A stretch of DNA of 64,000 nucleotides, from sequence record MH243438.1; one strand, 5' to 3'. Positions within the stretch are counted from its first letter, which is position 1; every line of letters starts with the position of its first letter. This DNA is from Escherichia phage vB_EcoM_NBG1. The notes under the pieces are model-generated. The model saw nothing but the letters and a program-made list of their open reading frames with translations, had not been told where the DNA came from and did no database searches. The position numbers and the translations under genes were made by a program. This document shows, one piece after another, positions 3,084 to 44,597 of this stretch.

Positions 3084-3770
3084 TTAGAAGTCGTGAGTAG
3101 AATCGGCTTCCATCGCAATAACATAACTTACTTGAGAGCTTTCAAACTTAGCTGCAACTTTATCACCAGCTCCCCACAACATTACTTTATAGTTACCTGG
3201 CTGGATTTTCATATTAGCCATATTGATTACGAAGTTAAAGTTATTAGAACCGTCATAATCAGTAAGAGTCAAAGAATACTTAGGACGAGTTAGTCCGGAA
3301 TCTTCAACTTTATTATAGCCATTGATAACAATTTTACCATCTTTATTTGTAATAGCAATTGTATCAATCTGAAGACCACGTGAAACTCGAAGCAATTGTT
3401 GAAGGTCTTCAGCTTTAATTTCAGTAATCACAGAAGCCACTGGGAATTGAATTGGCTTATTAGGAAAAACAATGGTGCTCTTGTCGGCAGCAGGCCAATA
3501 AACTGTGGAACGTGTATCTGCAATTTTAATATTGCCATCAGTATGCATTGAAATTTCGGCATCATCAGACACTAGACTCAAAATGCTTAAGAAGCTATTC
3601 AAATCATAAAGTGCTACGTCAAAATCAATTTCATCAGAGATATTTGCTTCCGCATAAGTGGTGCCATTAACTGCACGAGTCATAATAAATTTACCTTGAC
3701 TCAGCAGAATGCCAGAGTTAATAGAGGCAAAGTTTTTCAGAATAGCGATAGTATCTTTAGACAGTTTCAT
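3084..3770 (-). CDS. 45: Sliding clamp gp45
   Basis: MKLSKDTIAILKNFASINSG... 228 aa from second Met; near identity to T4 gp45. Confidence 0.9.
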   Translation of the reverse strand: MKLSKDTIAILKNFASINSGILLSQGKFIMTRAVNGTTYAEANISDEIDFDVALYDLNSFLSILSLVSDDAEISMHTDGNIKIADTRSTVYWPAADKSTIVFPNKPIQFPVASVITEIKAEDLQQLLRVSRGLQIDTIAITNKDGKIVINGYNKVEDSGLTRPKYSLTLTDYDGSNNFNFVINMANMKIQPGNYKVMLWGAGDKVAAKFESSQVSYVIAMEADSTHDF

Positions 3771-6653: not shown

Positions 6654-7669
6654 TGTGTTGCCTCAATATAAAGTTCGTTGGAATATTTGACCAGCGCTTC
6701 TCTGTCTTCGTCTGAGATATCTGGAATCGCGTCAATATATTCTTTAATGATATCTTGAAGTGATTTAATCTCGATTTCCTGGTCATCATCAGATTCAACA
6801 CTGTTATCAACTTTAGAAACCATACGAAGAGAGTGAACTACTTTTTCAAGTTCAGATTCAAACTTAGTCAACTCTGAATCAATTTCTGATACTATAACAC
6901 GTACGGCTAGATTAGTATAATCAGAATAATTAATTTTGCCTTTAAACGGATAAGTGATTCGTCGATGCCATGTTGTTTCATTAGGAATAAATTCCATACG
7001 TTCAACATCAGTGTCAAATACCCAGAATCCGCGCGGGTCGTTCTCGTCACCTGCAGTAAGGGTCCATGGTGTCCCAATATATTTGACGTTAGCAGCTTCA
7101 GAGATTGTGTGGAAGTGGCCAGACCAGACTTGTTTATAGGTCTTTAAGAAATCAGGTTCAAGCCCATGAGACTTCATTCCTTTATAGAAATAAAAGCCAT
7201 TCAGTTCCCAGTGCCCAACACAATACGCTGCGGAAGAAGTCTTGATGTGCTCTAAGATTTCACCTGTATTTTCTTCACACATCCATGGAACGATATCAAT
7301 CAGACATCCGTCAAAATCTACAGTAGTCGGATGCTCGTAAATAGTAAAGTTTTCAAATTGAGTTAACAATTCAGAAACAGTGTTAGGTGTTATTGTATTC
7401 TTAAACGCCATGTCATGGTTTCCTATCGTGACATGAACGTGAATGCCTGCTTTAGAAATCATATCAACGATTTCACGATTGAATTCCATTGTACGATGTG
7501 TTATTGCTTTACGGACGTCAAACCAATCGCCGTACTGAATCCAAGTTTTAATCCCGTGTTTCTTAGAGTATTCAATTGCTTGACGAATACCATCACGTTG
7601 AATATCTTGAACCCATGGGTCGTCTTGTTTGACTCCGATATGGAAGTCGCCTAAGTGCAAAATTTTCAT
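6650..7669 (-). CDS. 47: Recombination nuclease gp47 (SbcD/Mre11-like phosphoesterase)
   Basis: 339 aa, MKILHLGDFHIG and GNHD metallophosphatase motifs. Confidence 0.9.
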   Translation of the reverse strand: MKILHLGDFHIGVKQDDPWVQDIQRDGIRQAIEYSKKHGIKTWIQYGDWFDVRKAITHRTMEFNREIVDMISKAGIHVHVTIGNHDMAFKNTITPNTVSELLTQFENFTIYEHPTTVDFDGCLIDIVPWMCEENTGEILEHIKTSSAAYCVGHWELNGFYFYKGMKSHGLEPDFLKTYKQVWSGHFHTISEAANVKYIGTPWTLTAGDENDPRGFWVFDTDVERMEFIPNETTWHRRITYPFKGKINYSDYTNLAVRVIVSEIDSELTKFESELEKVVHSLRMVSKVDNSVESDDDQEIEIKSLQDIIKEYIDAIPDISDEDREALVKYSNELYIEATQ

Positions 7670-9780: not shown

Positions 9781-10109
9781 TTTACCGCCTTAACAATTTT
9801 AAGGTCAACGAATTTTTTCTTACGTTGATTTTTCATACGACGGATAGTCTTTTCAGAGATTTCATGTTTCTGATAAGCTTTAGATTCAACACCAAATGCA
9901 GCAACGTCAAATTCAGAAAGAATATATTGTACTAGAATTTCACGAATAGAATTACGTCCAATTTTCTGGTCGTGTTTTTGCATGATTTCATAAAGACGGA
10001 ATTCCCACGCATCAAGAACTTGAGGAGTAACAATATTGCCAGATTCCAGAAGAGCAACAACTTTATCGAAAGCGAAAGAATTAACTACGTTTTTGATTTT
10101 AGTAGACAT
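9777..10109 (-). CDS. hypothetical protein
   Basis: Start reassigned to MSTKIKNVV (10109) because promoter cassette lies inside the longer track ORF; GAGGA Shine-Dalgarno upstream. Confidence 0.5.
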   Translation of the reverse strand: MSTKIKNVVNSFAFDKVVALLESGNIVTPQVLDAWEFRLYEIMQKHDQKIGRNSIREILVQYILSEFDVAAFGVESKAYQKHEISEKTIRRMKNQRKKKFVDLKIVKAVK

Positions 10110-10140
10110 ATTATTTTCCTCGGTTATTTTATTATCCAAC

Positions 10141-10176
10141 GAGAGAATTATACTCATCTCTCAAGAGTTTGTATAC
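10141..10176 (-). promoter_or_regulatory. Early (sigma70-type) promoter inside hairpin cassette
   Basis: Minus strand GTATAC -35, 18-nt spacer, TATAAT -10 sitting in loop of GAGAGA/TCTCTC inverted repeat; cassette repeated near 40919-40977. Confidence 0.5.
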
Positions 10177-10415
10177 TATTTTTTAAGCATGAAAAGTAAG
10201 TAATTTGTATCACGTGGAGTAATATCAACACCCATATCAAAGATGCCTTTATAGATTGGGTATTTGTTTTCGGTTGTATCGAAGCTGAAACTATTTCCAT
10301 CACATCTAACAGTAATAGCATCTGTTAAAATGTCATACTCAATCCTAACAATTGAATCCCCAATTTTAACGTCGAGGTGTTTTTTGAATTTGATAAAATC
10401 TAATTCTTGGGCCAT
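10176..10415 (-). CDS. hypothetical protein
   Basis: 79-aa ORF. Confidence 0.45.
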   Translation of the reverse strand: MAQELDFIKFKKHLDVKIGDSIVRIEYDILTDAITVRCDGNSFSFDTTENKYPIYKGIFDMGVDITPRDTNYLLFMLKK

Positions 10416-10478
10416 GATATTTTCCTCATTTTAAGACGATAGGAAGTCATGTTATTATCTTCCTATCGTTGTACATTA

Positions 10479-26061: not shown

Positions 26062-26221
26062 ACATTTGCAATTCGGAGTGGGCGATGGTCATCTTTTTCA
26101 TAGCTCTGTTAATGTCGATGTCTCCATCTTCGCAACCATGAGCATTTTCCCAATCAGATACCGCATTAGCGTACTCTTCAATCAAAAACATTAACTTTGA
26201 AATCTTTTCTTTACGCGTCAT
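26042..26221 (-). CDS. hypothetical protein (59 aa)
   Basis: Start reassigned to MTRKEK downstream of GAGGAG; longer track ORF would include its own promoter and terminator. Confidence 0.45.
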   Translation of the reverse strand: MTRKEKISKLMFLIEEYANAVSDWENAHGCEDGDIDINRAMKKMTIAHSELQMYVNEIM

Positions 26222-26277
26222 AATGTTCTCCTCTAGTAAGTAAGGACTACTATAACACAACCTGAGGAGAAGTAAAC
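26222..26277 (-). promoter_or_regulatory. Early promoter/Shine-Dalgarno cassette (near-copy of regB cassette)
   Basis: Minus strand GTTTAC-TTCTCCTC...TATAGT...CTAGAGGAGAACATT-ATG. Confidence 0.45.
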
Positions 26278-26285
26278 TGATAGAT

Positions 26286-26316
26286 GCCAAAAAGCCCCAA
26301 CCATAAGGAAGGGGCT
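26286..26316 (-). terminator. Rho-independent terminator downstream of rI
   Basis: Minus-strand hairpin GCCCC/GGGGC with inner CC/GG, then TTTTTGG; ~22-bp arm identical to element at 41863-41884. Confidence 0.55.
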
Positions 26317-26322
26317 AGTAAA

Positions 26323-29414: not shown

Positions 29415-29873
29415 CTAGATTTTAATCACTGCTTTAGAAGCTTTTCCTGGTAGTCGTTTACTGTTAATAATAGCCATTCTGCATTGAAGAGTCTTCATTT
29501 TGAATGCCGGATTTTCGCGACAAACTGTAAGTCCTAACCAAAGATTTCCGTCAGTTATTTCTAAACGGCCTGGACGATACTCGACACCTTCGACAAAATC
29601 TTCATCAACATCTGGACGTGCCGGCATTGATAAAAATTCTGCAACTTCTTTAACGTGATTTTTTACTTTATGAAATAATTCAAAAACGTAATTCTCATCT
29701 ATTTCTCTCTGGATGGCACGATCTAAGAGATGTTGAGAATACTTGATATGAAAGCCTGGTAGTCCAAGAGACTTTGCAGCATCTTTTATACCGGCATTTA
29801 TTTTGCGGAACTCCGTTTCAAAGATTCGACGGAGTTTATTACGGCGGATAAAAACTTCCGAATTGATAGTCAT
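29415..29873 (-). CDS. regB: RegB endoribonuclease
   Basis: MTINSEVFIRRNKLRR...LKYSQHLLDRAIQREIDE...RPGRLEITDGNLWLG...QCRMAIINS.RLPGKASKAVIK matches T4 RegB. Confidence 0.85.
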   Translation of the reverse strand: MTINSEVFIRRNKLRRIFETEFRKINAGIKDAAKSLGLPGFHIKYSQHLLDRAIQREIDENYVFELFHKVKNHVKEVAEFLSMPARPDVDEDFVEGVEYRPGRLEITDGNLWLGLTVCRENPAFKMKTLQCRMAIINSKRLPGKASKAVIKI

Positions 29874-29880
29874 TTTGATT

Positions 29881-29930
29881 TCTCCTCTAGTTGACAAGTC
29901 TATAGTAACACAACTAGAGGAGAAGTAAAC
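29881..29930 (-). promoter_or_regulatory. regB early promoter with anti-SD/SD stem
   Basis: Minus strand GTTTAC-TTCTCCTCTAG-TTGTGT-TACTAT-...-CTAGAGGAGA-AATCAAA-ATG; 10-bp perfect inverted repeat. Confidence 0.55.
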
Positions 29931-30229
29931 TACTCTTTGAAAGGAATTAACTTTTTAACTGCTTTAGATACTTCGTCACGAACCTGATGGAAGTTCTTGA
30001 GCTGTTCAAGGCGTTGTTCGTAATACGCAATCTCATCTTCTTCAAGACAATCGTCAGCGTCTTCTTTCAGATATGCCTTGTACTCATTAAAGAGGGCCCA
30101 TAGGCGGTTCTCAAAGTCATCAAGGCTTTGAATTTTCTTGTGCTTCGGAACAAGGCCAAAAGGATTGCTTTCAGTTATGCGTCTAGATGCTTCATAATGA
30201 GTTCCAAAGCCTGATAGGATTTGAGCCAT
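29930..30229 (-). CDS. hypothetical protein
   Basis: 99-aa ORF. Confidence 0.5.
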
Positions 30230-32094: not shown

Positions 32095-32424
32095 TTATAC
32101 TCTAGGCTTTTGAGCTTGTTTGGTATTGGATTCCCATGCGGCTTTGGTAATTTTGTTAGCGGCATAACCAAAGGCATTAGATAGAACACCTTTAGAGTTG
32201 AATACATCCAATCCAATAAGTACACCGGCTGTGTTAAATTTAGGAGCAAAGTACGCATTAGTTTTAGAAAGAGCTTTTTTCAATTCAGGGTCTTGAACCA
32301 AGCCATCAAAAACGCCTTTACTATTTACTTTGTATGTTACTTTGGGATTTTTACCTTCTTCGATAGCAGCTTTCTGTTCCGCAGATAATGTAACTTCAGT
32401 GATAAACTCCTGATATGTTTTCAT
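32095..32424 (-). CDS. Internal-protein-like capsid protein with N-terminal targeting sequence
   Basis: Starts MKTYQEFITE, the conserved T4 internal-protein targeting sequence. Confidence 0.6.
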   Translation of the reverse strand: MKTYQEFITEVTLSAEQKAAIEEGKNPKVTYKVNSKGVFDGLVQDPELKKALSKTNAYFAPKFNTAGVLIGLDVFNSKGVLSNAFGYAANKITKAAWESNTKQAQKPRV

Positions 32425-32449
32425 TTTGTTCCTATTGTTTTAATTTATG

Positions 32450-32764
32450 TTATTCTTTAGGGAAGTTTTTAGAGTATGCATCATAAAGTTTATTACCAAT
32501 ACGACGGAAGACTTTAGCTGCAAAACGGTTTTCAGGGTTTTTAATCATGATTTGCATCATGTAAGTTCCTGCATCCGAAAGAGCTTCTTCATAGTACCCA
32601 TTAATTTCTTTAAGAGTCCTACGTTTACCACCAGGACCATCAACAGTAATTTTCCATTTACCTGTAGAAGTGCGGCTCGGTGGCTCAACTTGTTCAATCC
32701 AAATATAACCACCTTCAACGCGTTGGTTGGCGGATTCTGCAATAAATTCTTTATACGTTTTCAT
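32450..32764 (-). CDS. Internal-protein-like protein
   Basis: Starts MKTYKEFIAE. Confidence 0.6.
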   Translation of the reverse strand: MKTYKEFIAESANQRVEGGYIWIEQVEPPSRTSTGKWKITVDGPGGKRRTLKEINGYYEEALSDAGTYMMQIMIKNPENRFAAKVFRRIGNKLYDAYSKNFPKE

Positions 32765-32828
32765 TTTTTGTTTCCTTGTTTGTTTTGATAGAGTAATTAT
32801 ACCATATTAATACTTAAGCGTAAACAAT

Positions 32829-33089
32829 TTAAGCTTTACCGCCAGAAATAATTCCGAAGTTGTTAAAATCGTATCCAGTATCGTCAACATCCACTTTAGG
32901 ACTTGCTACAACATAAGCAATTTCACTACGTTTTGCATAGGTGTTGATTTCTTTACCATCGCCACCTAAGAAAGAATACCCATTACGTTTTAATGAGCCA
33001 AAGTCTTCGGCATCACCAATGAAAGCTTTAACTTTAAATTTAGGACATTTGGCATCTGCTTCAATGATAAATTCTTGATACATTTTCAT
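32829..33089 (-). CDS. Internal-protein-like protein
   Basis: Starts MKMYQEFIIE. Confidence 0.55.
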   Translation of the reverse strand: MKMYQEFIIEADAKCPKFKVKAFIGDAEDFGSLKRNGYSFLGGDGKEINTYAKRSEIAYVVASPKVDVDDTGYDFNNFGIISGGKA

Positions 33090-33095
33090 TTTTCC

Positions 33096-33509
33096 TTAGT
33101 AAATTGATTTACCATAGTATTTGTACCAAGTCGGACGTTGAGCAATTTTTTCATCTAAGCGTGCTTGACTTATCGCAATGGACTCTTCGGACGGGATGTA
33201 ATTATTACGAAATTCTACAGGAATGTCGGAAATATCCTGGACTGTCGTGTCCTTGATTTTGAAACCACGTTTCAAACATTCGGCTATTAGCTCGATTTGA
33301 CGTAAACGTAAAAATTCGAGTTTGTCGTAAAAGAATGTTACGTGACCTGTGCCTAAGATAAATGTTGGAGAGATTTTAAAATCTTTTACACGTTTACCAT
33401 TTTGAACATGTTTACGGACTGCACCAAATACGCGTGGTAATTCACGATACTCAGCCATAAGATGTTGGTCGGACAGTTCAGAAACAAGTGTTAAATTGAT
33501 ACGAGTCAT
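33096..33509 (-). CDS. denV: Endonuclease V (pyrimidine-dimer DNA glycosylase)
   Basis: [35 protein letters not shown]... close match to T4 DenV. Confidence 0.9.
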
Positions 33510-33513
33510 AATT

Positions 33514-33566
33514 TCCTCCAAGTAGTTGATAGATGTATAGTATCAAAGTCCTTGGAGGAAGTAAAC
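33514..33566 (-). promoter_or_regulatory. denV early promoter with anti-SD/SD stem
   Basis: Minus strand GTTTAC-TTCCTCCAAG-...TACTAT...-CTTGGAGGAA-ATT-ATG; 10-bp perfect inverted repeat. Confidence 0.55.
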
Positions 33567-33567
33567 A

Positions 33568-33849
33568 CTATTTTTCTGAAGCGCCTGAAATATATTTTTC
33601 AAGACGTTGTTTCATTAGCGAGCCGTTCTTAGCGATTTCTTCTGGTTTATCGCACATACGCAACAAGGCTTCAAGCTTAGCGATATCGCTGGTACGTTCA
33701 AATTTGCGAGTATCTATCTTACTAGCAAGTTCAGAAATACGTGCTAATAGACTTTCGGCTTCAACCAAAGCTGCACCTAACTTAGTTGCAAATGTGTCAG
33801 TAGCTTCATTAAGAATAGATTCTGATAAAAATTCACTATATGTTTTCAT
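33568..33849 (-). CDS. Internal-protein-like protein
   Basis: Starts [10 protein letters not shown] at internal Met of track ORF. Confidence 0.55.
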
Positions 33850-34334
33850 ATATACGCTTTCCAAGTTCCTGTTTTAAATGTTGAGATTACGCGTTTCGCG
33901 CGATTAGGTGTCTGACGATACCATTTAGATTGGGCTAGATTTACTGCCGCTTCATCCCAACGTTTCTGTTGAAGCATACGAAGAGAATTAGTAAAACCGG
34001 CGACGCCTGCTACGCCCATTTGGAAGACCATATTGACCAATGCACATCGACGAACCGCATCTAAAGAATCATATACCGGTTTAAGTTTAGCATTACCCAA
34101 GATTCCGCGAACGGCTTTATCAACGTCTTCATTAAATAGCTTTTCAGCCTCATCAAGGGTAATTGTACCGTTGCATTTACGACCGATCATTCTGTCAAGT
34201 TCAGCTTTAGCTACGGCTAAAGACGGGTTCTTTGTTACTAAATGGCCTATGCCAATCGTCCAAAAGCCTTCAGTGTCTTTGTATAAAGTCAGTCTAAGAC
34301 CTTCGTCATTACGAAGCATTTCAAATATATTCAT
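33846..34334 (-). CDS. e: Lysozyme (endolysin) e
   Basis: [32 protein letters not shown]... near-identical to T4 lysozyme. Confidence 0.9.
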
Positions 34335-40302: not shown

Positions 40303-40896
40303 TTATTTCAAAGAGTTAATATATTCTTGTACATCAGCAGAAGTGGTTTCGACACCAGCTGGAGTGCCATTGAACGTTTCAACACGAGTCAGAGTGTCTT
40401 CGATATCAACCTTAGTCAGTGCAGCGATTTCAATTACATCATCAGCCGTAGAGATACCAAGGGCATTGGCTGCTCGAGTTTCACGAATGTATTCGAGTTT
40501 GATTGCCAGATTCTGACGAGCATCATCAAGTTCAACCACCTTACGAGCAATTTCAATTCGCATAGCGGCATACCCGTCAGCTTTTGTATTAAGTTGTTCG
40601 GCAGTTCGACGATACAGAAGACCAAGCTTAGCATGCATAGTAACATCTTGTCCTTCAGCCAGGAGCTTACGAATTTCACGTTCCTTAGAAGCGGCTTGCT
40701 TGTTCTTTTCATTAACAAGTTCGCGAATACGTTTTTCTTCATTAATAGATTTAACAGAAGCCGTTTTTAGTTCTTTGATTTGGGTAATCAACTTATCTGC
40801 AGCTGCGTTATACTGTTCTTCGACAGTCAGATTTTTAGCCATAGCAGTACCCAGTTTAGTGCGGATGAATTCAACAAGTTTCTTCAGTGTGTTCAT
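40303..40896 (-). CDS. coiled-coil protein
   Basis: 197 aa from [14 protein letters not shown] (track uses upstream TTG). Confidence 0.5.
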
Positions 40897-40918: not shown

Positions 40919-40977
40919 TTTATTATCCAACGAGAGCATTATACTCTGCTCTCAAGAGTTTGTAAATTATTTTTTAA
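40919..40977 (-). promoter_or_regulatory. Early promoter hairpin cassette (copy of 10128-10186)
   Basis: ~59 bp, 5 differences from the 10.1-kb copy; stem arms GAGAGC/GCTCTC show compensatory change. Confidence 0.5.
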
Positions 40978-41194
40978 TCAAATTGACATAAAACTCGGCG
41001 TCTTCCGGGTGCATGCCTTCGCAGTATTCTTCAACCATGAACTTCTTAACAGCTTCATAAGGACCACTCAGATTAAGCTCAGTTGTCCAGAACTTGGAAT
41101 CTTGGGCTGAATCGATACGAACTTCAGGGTGTCGGTTGCGAATAACTTCTTCGGTGTATTCATAATCAACGACATCAATACTAACTTTAGCCAT
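40967..41194 (-). CDS. hypothetical protein
   Basis: 75-aa ORF. Confidence 0.45.
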   Translation of the reverse strand: MAKVSIDVVDYEYTEEVIRNRHPEVRIDSAQDSKFWTTELNLSGPYEAVKKFMVEEYCEGMHPEDAEFYVNLIKK

Positions 41195-41779: not shown

Positions 41780-41865
41780 AATATTTTCCTCATGTTTTTA
41801 TAGGTCTATAGTAACACATCTAGGGAAGAAGTAAACAACTTTATGAAATATTTTTATGCCCTAGA

Positions 41866-41896
41866 TGCCAAAAAGCCCCAACCTTTCGGAAGGGGC
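41866..41896 (-). terminator. Rho-independent terminator closing the tRNA transcription unit
   Basis: Hairpin GCCCC..CC-TTTC-GG..GGGGC followed by TTTTTGG; sequence copy of terminator at 26286-26316. Confidence 0.55.
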
Positions 41897-41939
41897 TATG
41901 CCTTGCGGCAACCTTGTCGGGGTTCCACCTGCTAAGGCA

Positions 41940-42571: not shown

Positions 42572-42648
42572 TGGCCGAGACAGAAGGATTCTAACCTTCA
42601 ACCTACGGATTAGAATTCCGTTGCTCTATACAATTGAGCTATGCCTCG
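42572..42648 (-). tRNA. tRNA-Arg (anticodon UCU)
   Basis: 77-nt cloverleaf folded by hand with 7-bp acceptor stem, GCTC/GAGC D-stem, anticodon loop AUUCUAA, T-arm GAAGG-TTAGAAT-CCTTC, encoded CCA. Confidence 0.7.
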
Positions 42649-42654
42649 AATATA

Positions 42655-42728
42655 TGACCCAGACCAGATTCGAACTGGTAACCTTTCCCTTATGAGGGGA
42701 CTGCTGCTAACCATTGAGCTACAGGGCC
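42655..42728 (-). tRNA. tRNA with CAU anticodon (Met or Ile2 type)
   Basis: 74 nt, anticodon loop CUCAUAA, T-arm ACCAG-TTCGAAT-CTGGT; one acceptor mismatch and unclear D-stem in my reading. Confidence 0.6.
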
Positions 42729-44183: not shown

Positions 44184-44232
44184 TTGTTTTGATAGGACTA
44201 CTATAACATAGTCCTATCAGCATGTAAACTAC

Positions 44233-44520
44233 TTACAGAAGAGTTTTTGCAATAATTTTAAGCTGAGCTACAGAAATATGCTTAGCTTTAAACAGTGCAG
44301 TCTCTTCGGCCGGAGAGATAACAATAGTAGCGCCGTCTTTCTTAGCAGACCATCCATCCCCTAAGTAAACAGTACCTTTTACTTCTTCACCGTCAACCAG
44401 ACTAATCATTGGTTTACCCTCACGTCCTTTATTTGCTTTAATAACTTCGGAAGTAAGGGTTGCTTCGGTCAGAGTAGAAACGTTAGCAACAGGTGATATA
44501 AATTCTTTATAGGTTTTCAT
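44233..44520 (-). CDS. ipI: Internal protein I-like
   Basis: 95 aa starting MKTYKEFIS; positioned upstream of 57B as T4 ipI. Confidence 0.6.
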   Translation of the reverse strand: MKTYKEFISPVANVSTLTEATLTSEVIKANKGREGKPMISLVDGEEVKGTVYLGDGWSAKKDGATIVISPAEETALFKAKHISVAQLKIIAKTLL

Positions 44521-44597
44521 TTTATTTCCTTGAGGTTGTTTATTTGATAGGATGATAGTAACACACCATCATCCTTATGTAAACTGTTTTGTGAAAA

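Follow-up and report, generated by a model that had tools for sequence, protein, structure and literature searches.

Two copies of a PeSL-type cassette with a covarying hairpin at gene-indel breakpoints of a Mosigvirus genome

Why does the same short sequence stand upstream of two unrelated genes, 30 kb apart in one phage genome, and why do its copies differ within the arms of an inverted repeat that can nevertheless pair in both? The question was raised by an initial annotation of a 64,000-nucleotide stretch of Escherichia phage vB_EcoM_NBG1 (MH243438.1; this whole stretch is hereafter called the window), which described a mobile early-promoter cassette of ~59 bp with five substitutions between its two copies. 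Judged by its sequence, the window is a Mosigvirus (RB69-like T-even) genome; the 3-kb stretch around copy 1 (10128-10189) is 99.1% identical to Shigella phage JK42 and 98-99% identical to many other Mosigvirus phages.

Sequence and layout of the two copies

The genes in both cassette regions are on the minus strand. Copy 1 (10128-10189, minus strand) is flanked by the stop of a 79-aa ORF, a homologue of RB69ORF075c, and by a 110-aa homologue of 55.2 (phrog_1475); the neighbours of copy 2 (40919-40980, minus strand) are the stop of a 75-aa ORF, named e.6 in RB69, and a 197-aa homologue of Frd.3 (phrog_1203). All four flanking ORFs fall into PHROG families of unknown function. Local BLAST aligned the copies with 54/59 identities (E = 3e-17), and a repeat finder (family D8) carried the match to 62 nt at 90% identity over the full coordinates of both copies; the string printed in the initial annotation is 57 nt long (10128-10184), and the homology continues to 10189/40980. 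The repeat, its 30-kb spacing and its five substitutions were thus confirmed, and the downstream genes are indeed unrelated, since the 110-aa and 197-aa proteins share no similarity. The gene downstream of copy 2 (40303-40896, minus strand) corresponds to frd.3 of RB69, where it lies beside e.6. In T4, frd.3 presumably adjoins frd; if so, the neighbourhood of this gene differs between T4 and Mosigvirus.

The gene-strand sequence of copy 1 is AAAAAATAG-TATACA-AACTCTT-GAGAGA-TGAG-TATAAT-TCTCTC-GTTGGATAATAAA and that of copy 2 is AAAAAATAA-TTTACA-AACTCTT-GAGAGC-AGAG-TATAAT-GCTCTC-GTTGGATAATAAA. The segments directly 5' of the -35 hexamer (AAAAAATAG and AAAAAATAA, respectively) consist of the final codons and stop of the upstream ORFs, and the Shine-Dalgarno (SD) sequence and start codon of the downstream gene stand at the 3' end of each copy (GAGGAAAATAATATG and AAAGGTAATAATATG). 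Read on the minus strand, two of the substitutions (G/A and A/T) fall in or next to the -35, two (C/A and A/T) in the spacer and one (G/T) right after the -10. Two of the five are the two sides of a single base pair.

A consensus scan of the minus strand identified TATACA-17-TATAAT in copy 1 (10/12) and TTTACA-17-TATAAT in copy 2 (11/12), in agreement with the -35-like GTATAC/ATTTAC and the TATAAT in the loop of a 6-bp inverted repeat that had been reported. In copy 1, an UP-element-like A-tract (AAAAAA) together with the TAG stop of the 79-aa ORF (10176-10186) lies inside the repeat and precedes the -35 hexamer TATACA (10170-10175; GTATAC in T4 numbering). The 5' arm GAGAGA (10157-10162) occupies the promoter spacer (-22 to -17), the -10 hexamer TATAAT (10147-10152) is inside the hairpin loop, and the 3' arm TCTCTC (10141-10146) occupies the discriminator (-6 to -1). 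The transcription start is predicted at the G at 10140, 7 nt after the -10, followed (10107-10139) by the leader UUGGAUAAUAAA, the SD sequence GAGGAAA and the ATG (10107-10109) of the 55.2 homologue. In copy 2, the TAA stop of the upstream ORF (40967-40969) abuts the -35 hexamer TTTACA (40961-40966), and the 5' arm GAGAGC (40948-40953), the -10 hexamer TATAAT in the loop (40938-40943) and the 3' arm GCTCTC (40932-40937) lead to a predicted start at 40931 and a downstream ATG at 40894-40896. The extended -10 (TGn), which is common but non-obligatory in the T4-type early promoter (Pe) family, was absent from both copies in the consensus scan, GAG preceding the -10 instead. The features of the family that are present are GTATAC/ATTTAC, AAAAAA and TATAAT, and we infer that both copies are early promoters. 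In GenBank record ATK48, a host-consensus promoter is annotated under its match to a 201-bp query spanning copy 2.

The arms differ between the copies and remain complementary, as had been claimed. The predicted RNA fold is weak for copy 1 (about -6.7 to -8.5 kcal/mol, z -1.7) and reaches -12.6 kcal/mol (z -3.2) for copy 2, which has an extra inner A-U pair that is lost from copy 1; in both copies, a U·G pair and three outer pairs, formed by UCU and the GGA of a conserved GGAU, can lengthen the stem. The start is predicted just 3' of the stem, at the G directly after the 3' arm (~10140 and ~40931). Because the 5' arm lies upstream of this position, the cassette's own transcript should be unable to form the hairpin, which would be possible only in RNA entering from an upstream promoter. 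No U-run follows the stem at either copy, where the tail is GUUGGAUAAUAAA, and a terminator scan gave no match at copy 1 or copy 2. Lacking a U-tract, the hairpin of the two copies is, on its sequence, no canonical terminator, and the terminator-like hairpins of the same genome differ from it, with AGCCCC..GGGGCU followed by U5 (41862-41898 and 26281-26317).

Several other repeats and RNA features occur in the window. The two terminator-like hairpins just mentioned, both on the minus strand, are copies of a 37-nt repeat (92% identical) running from AGCCCC..GGGGCU into UUUUU, and sit a few bases upstream of early promoters at ~41813 and ~26254; repeat and promoter together make a second, different promoter-hairpin composite that does have a terminator signature. 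A 33-nt repeat (32395-32427, 32735-32767, 33060-33092, 33820-33852 and 44491-44523) lies over the start codons of small minus-strand ORFs, which, at a spacing of ~330 bp, look like a tandem paralogous small-gene family. An Rfam scan found no family at either cassette copy and only two tRNAs in the whole window, encoded by adjacent minus-strand genes at 42575-42648 and 42655-42728 (RF00005, 65.6 and 54 bits).

The cassette family and covariation of the arms

JK42 contains two more paralogues outside the region covered by the window, which gives a subfamily of four copies in the window plus JK42. The paralogue upstream of ndd has the arms GAGAGC/GCTCTC, and that in the pseT region has AGGAGC/GCTCCT, with two further pairs changed on both sides. 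IMG/VR and the JGI metagenomes were scanned for the wider family with the pattern TACAAACTC-N9-GAGTATAAT, in which the arms were left free, returning 37 and 33 loci, respectively; a stricter pattern had given only 3 loci in IMG/VR and was relaxed. The 18 promoter positions fixed by the pattern are invariant by construction, and their invariance is uninformative. Flanks of 180 bp were clustered with strict links, and the family was found at at least seven genomic sites, upstream of motB, 55.2, ndd, a frd.3-like gene and three more genes whose products begin M(K/T)LLENY, MSLRDN and MSKVFF. It spans Tequatrovirus, Mosigvirus, JS98-like, VR-like and metagenomic phages. GAGAG-type arms are present at three Mosigvirus sites where other genera have GGG-type arms; the arm types thus track lineage, not site, a pattern that points to exchange or conversion between cassettes.

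In INPHARED, 369 records match the cassette. BLAST placed one member of the same family in T4, upstream of motB (NC_000866 ~7166-7219), with the sequence TTTACAAACTC-TTGGGACCA-GAGTATAAT-GGTCCCGT-GGAG. Its hairpin (-19.7 kcal/mol) is in the same register as those of the window copies, although its arms (GGGACC/GGUCCC) and its flanking genes are different. The GenBank and RefSeq records of T4 annotate no promoter at motB, nor is one mapped in the MotB paper. Searches of the literature found no transcript data for NBG1 or the T4 motB copy, nor genome-wide maps of 5' or 3' ends for T4 or RB69.

The complementarity of the differing arms had been presented as evidence of covariation. The two window copies by themselves supply one compensatory event, and it is the further copies that make the evidence robust. 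Covariation was counted on a named 8-pair helix, over 26 distinct cassettes and then over 39. In the set of 39, standard pairs filled 96.2% of the cells, compared to 82.6 +/- 1.2% when the 3' letters were shuffled (0/500), and the covariation score was 0.514 versus 0.246 in the shuffles (0/500). When the partner was slid by 1-3 columns, pairing fell to 36-55%. Changes on both sides occurred in five of the eight pairs, and eight fully Watson-Crick arm haplotypes were observed (GAGAGA, GAGAGC, AGGAGC, GAGGAC, GGGAGC, GGGACC, GGGAGT and GGGGTC). The search for uncompensated arm changes in additional copies, run on the 39 distinct cassettes, thus came out in favor of the stem. At the orthologous copy 1 site, the arms are GAGAGC/GCUCUC in AV115 and SQ17 and GAGAGA/UCUCUC in the window and RB69, which places the compensated change within that lineage. 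The seventh pair at this site is U-A in AV115 and SQ17, U·G in the window and C-G in RB69.

The pairs also carry information on the strand. In 38 of the 39 cassettes (counted over 29 distinct arm combinations), the six core pairs included 17 G·U positions and no A·C or other mismatches; the exception was a cassette located between tRNA genes. Since a G·T on the gene strand is an A·C on the opposite strand, this pattern speaks against a symmetric structure in DNA and against a palindrome bound by protein, as does the fact that the arm sequence is not conserved. A sense bias of G·U can also be read in a GATAGG/CCTATC subfamily. Sense and antisense folding energies did not differ significantly over ~38 early promoters (p = 0.46 over the full set, p = 0.10 over the strong hairpins), and the argument for the RNA strand accordingly rests on the pair census and the GATAGG/CCTATC subfamily. 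Because the arms covary and G·U pairs are found only on the gene strand, the hairpin is evidently selected for pairing and appears to act in the sense strand, most likely in read-through RNA; RNA, rather than sense-strand ssDNA, would most simply be the folding molecule.

The cassettes are part of a larger set. About 38 hairpin-bearing early-type promoters were catalogued in the window and JK42, clustering in variable early regions, and a pair encloses the -10 in 32 of 37 early promoters from the two sequences. The real left and right halves of 38 early promoters folded at -11.2 kcal/mol, versus -8.0 +/- 0.44 kcal/mol for permuted halves (0/5000). Several early promoters pair the spacer with the downstream SD sequence, for example at 29907 and 33542 in the window. 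Spacers complementary to the downstream SD were noted at ~29872-29944, 33507-33580 and 26219-26291, and at ~7402 and ~19552 of JK42 (L005); they read TCTCCTC... directly after GTTTACT and form stems of 10-14 bp (-19 to -24 kcal/mol). The ribosome-binding site of these promoters would be buried in read-through RNA and free in the promoter's own RNA.

Two further observations concern the surroundings of the stem. The family member between two tRNA genes (L048; metagenome Ga0228698_1000130, ~3107-3145) has intact promoter boxes and non-complementary arms (GTTTCACTA / GTAAAAGT), and was the sole hairpin-less copy found. The boxes of this one copy are kept without pairing arms, and therefore the stem does not seem to be required for the promoter; from this single case in a tRNA cluster, the stem may be linked with an mRNA context. 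The 3' arm is immediately followed, at ~+3 of the predicted transcript, by (U)GGAG or GGAU and then a stretch rich in A and U (alignment A2; T4 copy L041, ~440-460). This conserved motif pairs with a conserved ACUCU 5' of the stem. It could be a site of a nuclease such as RegB or RNase E, whose preferences it would fit, or a pseudo-SD.

Gene-indel breakpoints at the cassettes

The initial annotation had proposed looking for the copies at synteny breakpoints between related phages, and both copies do sit at breakpoints of gene indels. At the copy 1 site, Mosigvirus AV115, like the JS98-like phages, lacks the 79-aa ORF, and 55.3 is joined straight to the cassette. On the far side of the 79-aa ORF, a degraded cassette (10436-10476, minus strand), in which ATGTACA has been kept and the -10 lost, forms the left border of the ORF indel. 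The degraded cassette also has a perfect 11-bp hairpin, ACGATAGGAAG/CTTCCTATCGT (-14.8 kcal/mol, z -5.1); at this position, the hairpin has outlived the promoter.

At the copy 2 site, an extra ORF of ~300 bp is present between e.6 and frd.3 in IMG/VR contig L004, SA35RD and JN02. The extra ORF in L004 is flanked by two cassettes, and the single cassette of the window is a chimera of these whose crossover lies within (T/C)ACAAAC. In the case of RPN187 and TH58, homology at this site sets in precisely at the 5' boundary of the -35, and the upstream gene is a different one. A third indel involves positions 44229-44578 of the window, a segment located between a pair of neighbouring cassettes whose -10 elements are at 44560 and 44205. 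It is absent from L004, and the junction is the GTTTACA common to the two cassettes. The three indel junctions all fall in the -35 motif, upstream of the stem. Since only 7-10 bp are shared at these junctions, the events could as plausibly have been mediated by microhomology as by true homologous exchange.

One nearby deletion is not bounded by cassettes. In a comparison of the JS98-like contigs L034 and L030, one ORF (product M(S/T)LRDN...) is deleted precisely, from its ATG to the next ATG. This deletion was considered as a cassette-bounded event and rejected, as the junction is a TATGA microhomology at two start codons and there is no second cassette; read from the two contigs, it is a counter-example to cassette-mediated shuffling. 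The description of the element as mobile holds in the sense of recombination or gene conversion between resident cassettes, but not in the sense of autonomous mobility.

Relation to PeSL cassettes and possible roles of the hairpin

Promoter-early stem-loop (PeSL) cassettes of T4-type phages were described in 2010 and 2014 (PMC2839356; PMC4122927). They consist of an upstream stop codon in an AT-rich tract, -35 and -10 boxes, a stem-loop, usually between the boxes or overlapping the -10 and tolerant of G-T pairs, and an SD sequence with ATG; they favor variable early regions and orphan ORFs, and are involved in insertions, deletions and replacements (PMC2839356; PMC4122927). The described carriers are RB49/phi1, PST/T4 and nt-1/KVP40; RB69 is not mentioned in Arbiol et al. 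2010, and RB69-type phages are not named as carriers in the PeSL papers (PMC2839356; PMC4122927). One RB49 PeSL stem-loop lowered lacZ expression to the same extent as the rrnB T1 terminator (PMC2839356; PMC4122927), and one mini-circle crossover in RB49 was mapped within the loop (PMC2839356). The match to PeSL cassettes drawn in the initial annotation is borne out, as every sequence-level feature of the published description is present in both copies; they belong to this published class and do not constitute a new class of element. The promoter form of the T4/PST PeSLs, TTTACW-N17-TAYWAT, also fits both copies. However, published PeSL stems are of the form Gn/Cn or AGnA/TCnT, whereas the window copies have GAGAGN/NCTCTC stems and no terminator signature.

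The promoters at these positions have been predicted before. Nolan et al. 2006 listed the RB69 early promoters Pe:42515 and Pe:72069 (PMC1524935, Additional file 3), which correspond, as orthologues, to copy 1 and copy 2. The T4-type Pe consensus has a GTTTAC-like element at -36 to -31, an A-rich segment at -40 to -44, a TATAAT-like -10 and a C-rich segment at -3 to -1 (PMC1524935), and the window copies match it as Pe:42515 and Pe:72069 do. In that study only the promoters were scored, and hairpins or inverted repeats do not occur in its text (PMC1524935).

Each copy is probably, on the sequence evidence, a PeSL-type composite of a sigma-70 early promoter, a hairpin boundary element that acts in the sense RNA, and a recombination site. 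In this scheme, the small downstream gene would be driven by a strong early promoter of the sigma-70 type (A-rich tract, T(A/T)TACA, 17 bp, TATAAT), whose spacer and discriminator would also encode both arms of the hairpin; the hairpin itself would be dispensable for promoter activity. The hairpin would mark the boundary between adjacent early transcription units in the sense RNA, either by attenuation or pausing or, more likely, as a protected 3' end or processing site beside the AU-rich GGAU/GGAG leader; attenuated or processed ends would be expected just after the stem or in GGAUAAUAAA. Related genomes would recombine in sequence common to the cassettes, above all the -35 motif, thereby adding or removing single small ORFs and homogenizing the cassettes within a lineage.

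We considered whether the stem-loop might instead be an intrinsic (Rho-independent) terminator that stops upstream transcription, as proposed for PeSLs. Its intergenic position directly after the upstream stop codon and the effect of the RB49 stem-loop on lacZ fit such a role; the tail GUUGGAUAAUAAA without a U-run, the blank terminator scan at both copies, the short stems (-8.5 and -12.6 kcal/mol) and the different appearance of the genome's own AGCCCC..GGGGCU + U5 hairpins do not, and we regard a terminator as unlikely here. The inverted repeat could also act in DNA, either as the palindromic operator of a dimeric regulator or as a cruciform that modulates promoter melting, and the arms do bracket the -10, where a bound protein or an extrusion would affect the open complex. 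An operator would conserve its sequence, however, whereas eight arm haplotypes have kept complementarity alone, and the non-Watson-Crick core pairs in the 38 cassettes, which are G·T when read on the gene strand, A·C on its complement, would make the duplex asymmetric. Arms of 6-8 bp with a loop of 8-10 nt, as in these cassettes, are poor cruciform formers, and the family member without complementary arms retains all promoter boxes. An action in duplex DNA is consequently very unlikely.

That the hairpin might form in gene-strand ssDNA during replication or recombination, promoting template switching or crossovers without any function in RNA, agrees with the tolerance of G·T in DNA hairpins, by which the bias fits either RNA or sense ssDNA, and with the one RB49 mini-circle crossover inside the loop. 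Against it, the three resolved indel junctions lie in the -35 motif and none is in the stem or loop, and the strong hairpin that the degraded cassette (10436-10476) has kept, in an intergenic region that is expressed, fits a role in RNA equally well or better; we hold this explanation to be improbable. A hairpin without function, its complementarity a by-product of promoter paralogy and gene conversion, would account for the weak fold of copy 1 and for the homogenization of cassettes within lineages (GAGAG-type in Mosigvirus versus GGG-type elsewhere, at three sites). Conversion copies sequence, though, and would not create eight self-complementary arm pairs, and it leaves the U-A, U·G, C-G series at one orthologous site unexplained, so that this is the explanation to which we give hardly any credence.

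A broader role of the hairpin has a precedent in T4. In the lysozyme gene e, soc, 49 and I-TevI, the ribosome-binding site is buried in a hairpin of the long transcript and freed when the transcript starts inside the hairpin. The window copies follow a like logic in that a promoter lies within the hairpin and only read-through RNA folds; the T4 genes differ in that their promoters are late or middle and the real SD is buried, while in the window copies the real SD is outside the stem and only the GGAU/GGAG near the start is paired. It is conceivable, although we are doubtful of it, that the hairpin works as a transcript-origin switch throughout the early regions of T-even phages, making expression of small genes dependent on the promoter of origin. 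With the 5' arm upstream of the start, only read-through RNA would fold, and the fold would bury GGAG/GGAU in the cassette subfamily or the real SD in other subfamilies of the window, or would make a protected processing site. If true, such a switch would extend the logic of a few T4 genes with late or middle promoters to dozens of early promoters.

For the PeSL idea, these results provide independent comparative support from Mosigvirus, a genus unnamed in the PeSL papers, and add formal covariation, the sense G·U bias, a stem upstream of the predicted start, the lack of a terminator signature and three junctions in the -35. The strand-specific pairing and the position of the stem upstream of the predicted start imply that it would act on read-through RNA or on sense-strand ssDNA, and since the subfamily of the two copies has no terminator signature, the label "promoter-terminator" is probably wrong for it. 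In the annotation of T-even genomes, the cassettes are useful for marking where transcription units meet and where indels are likely.
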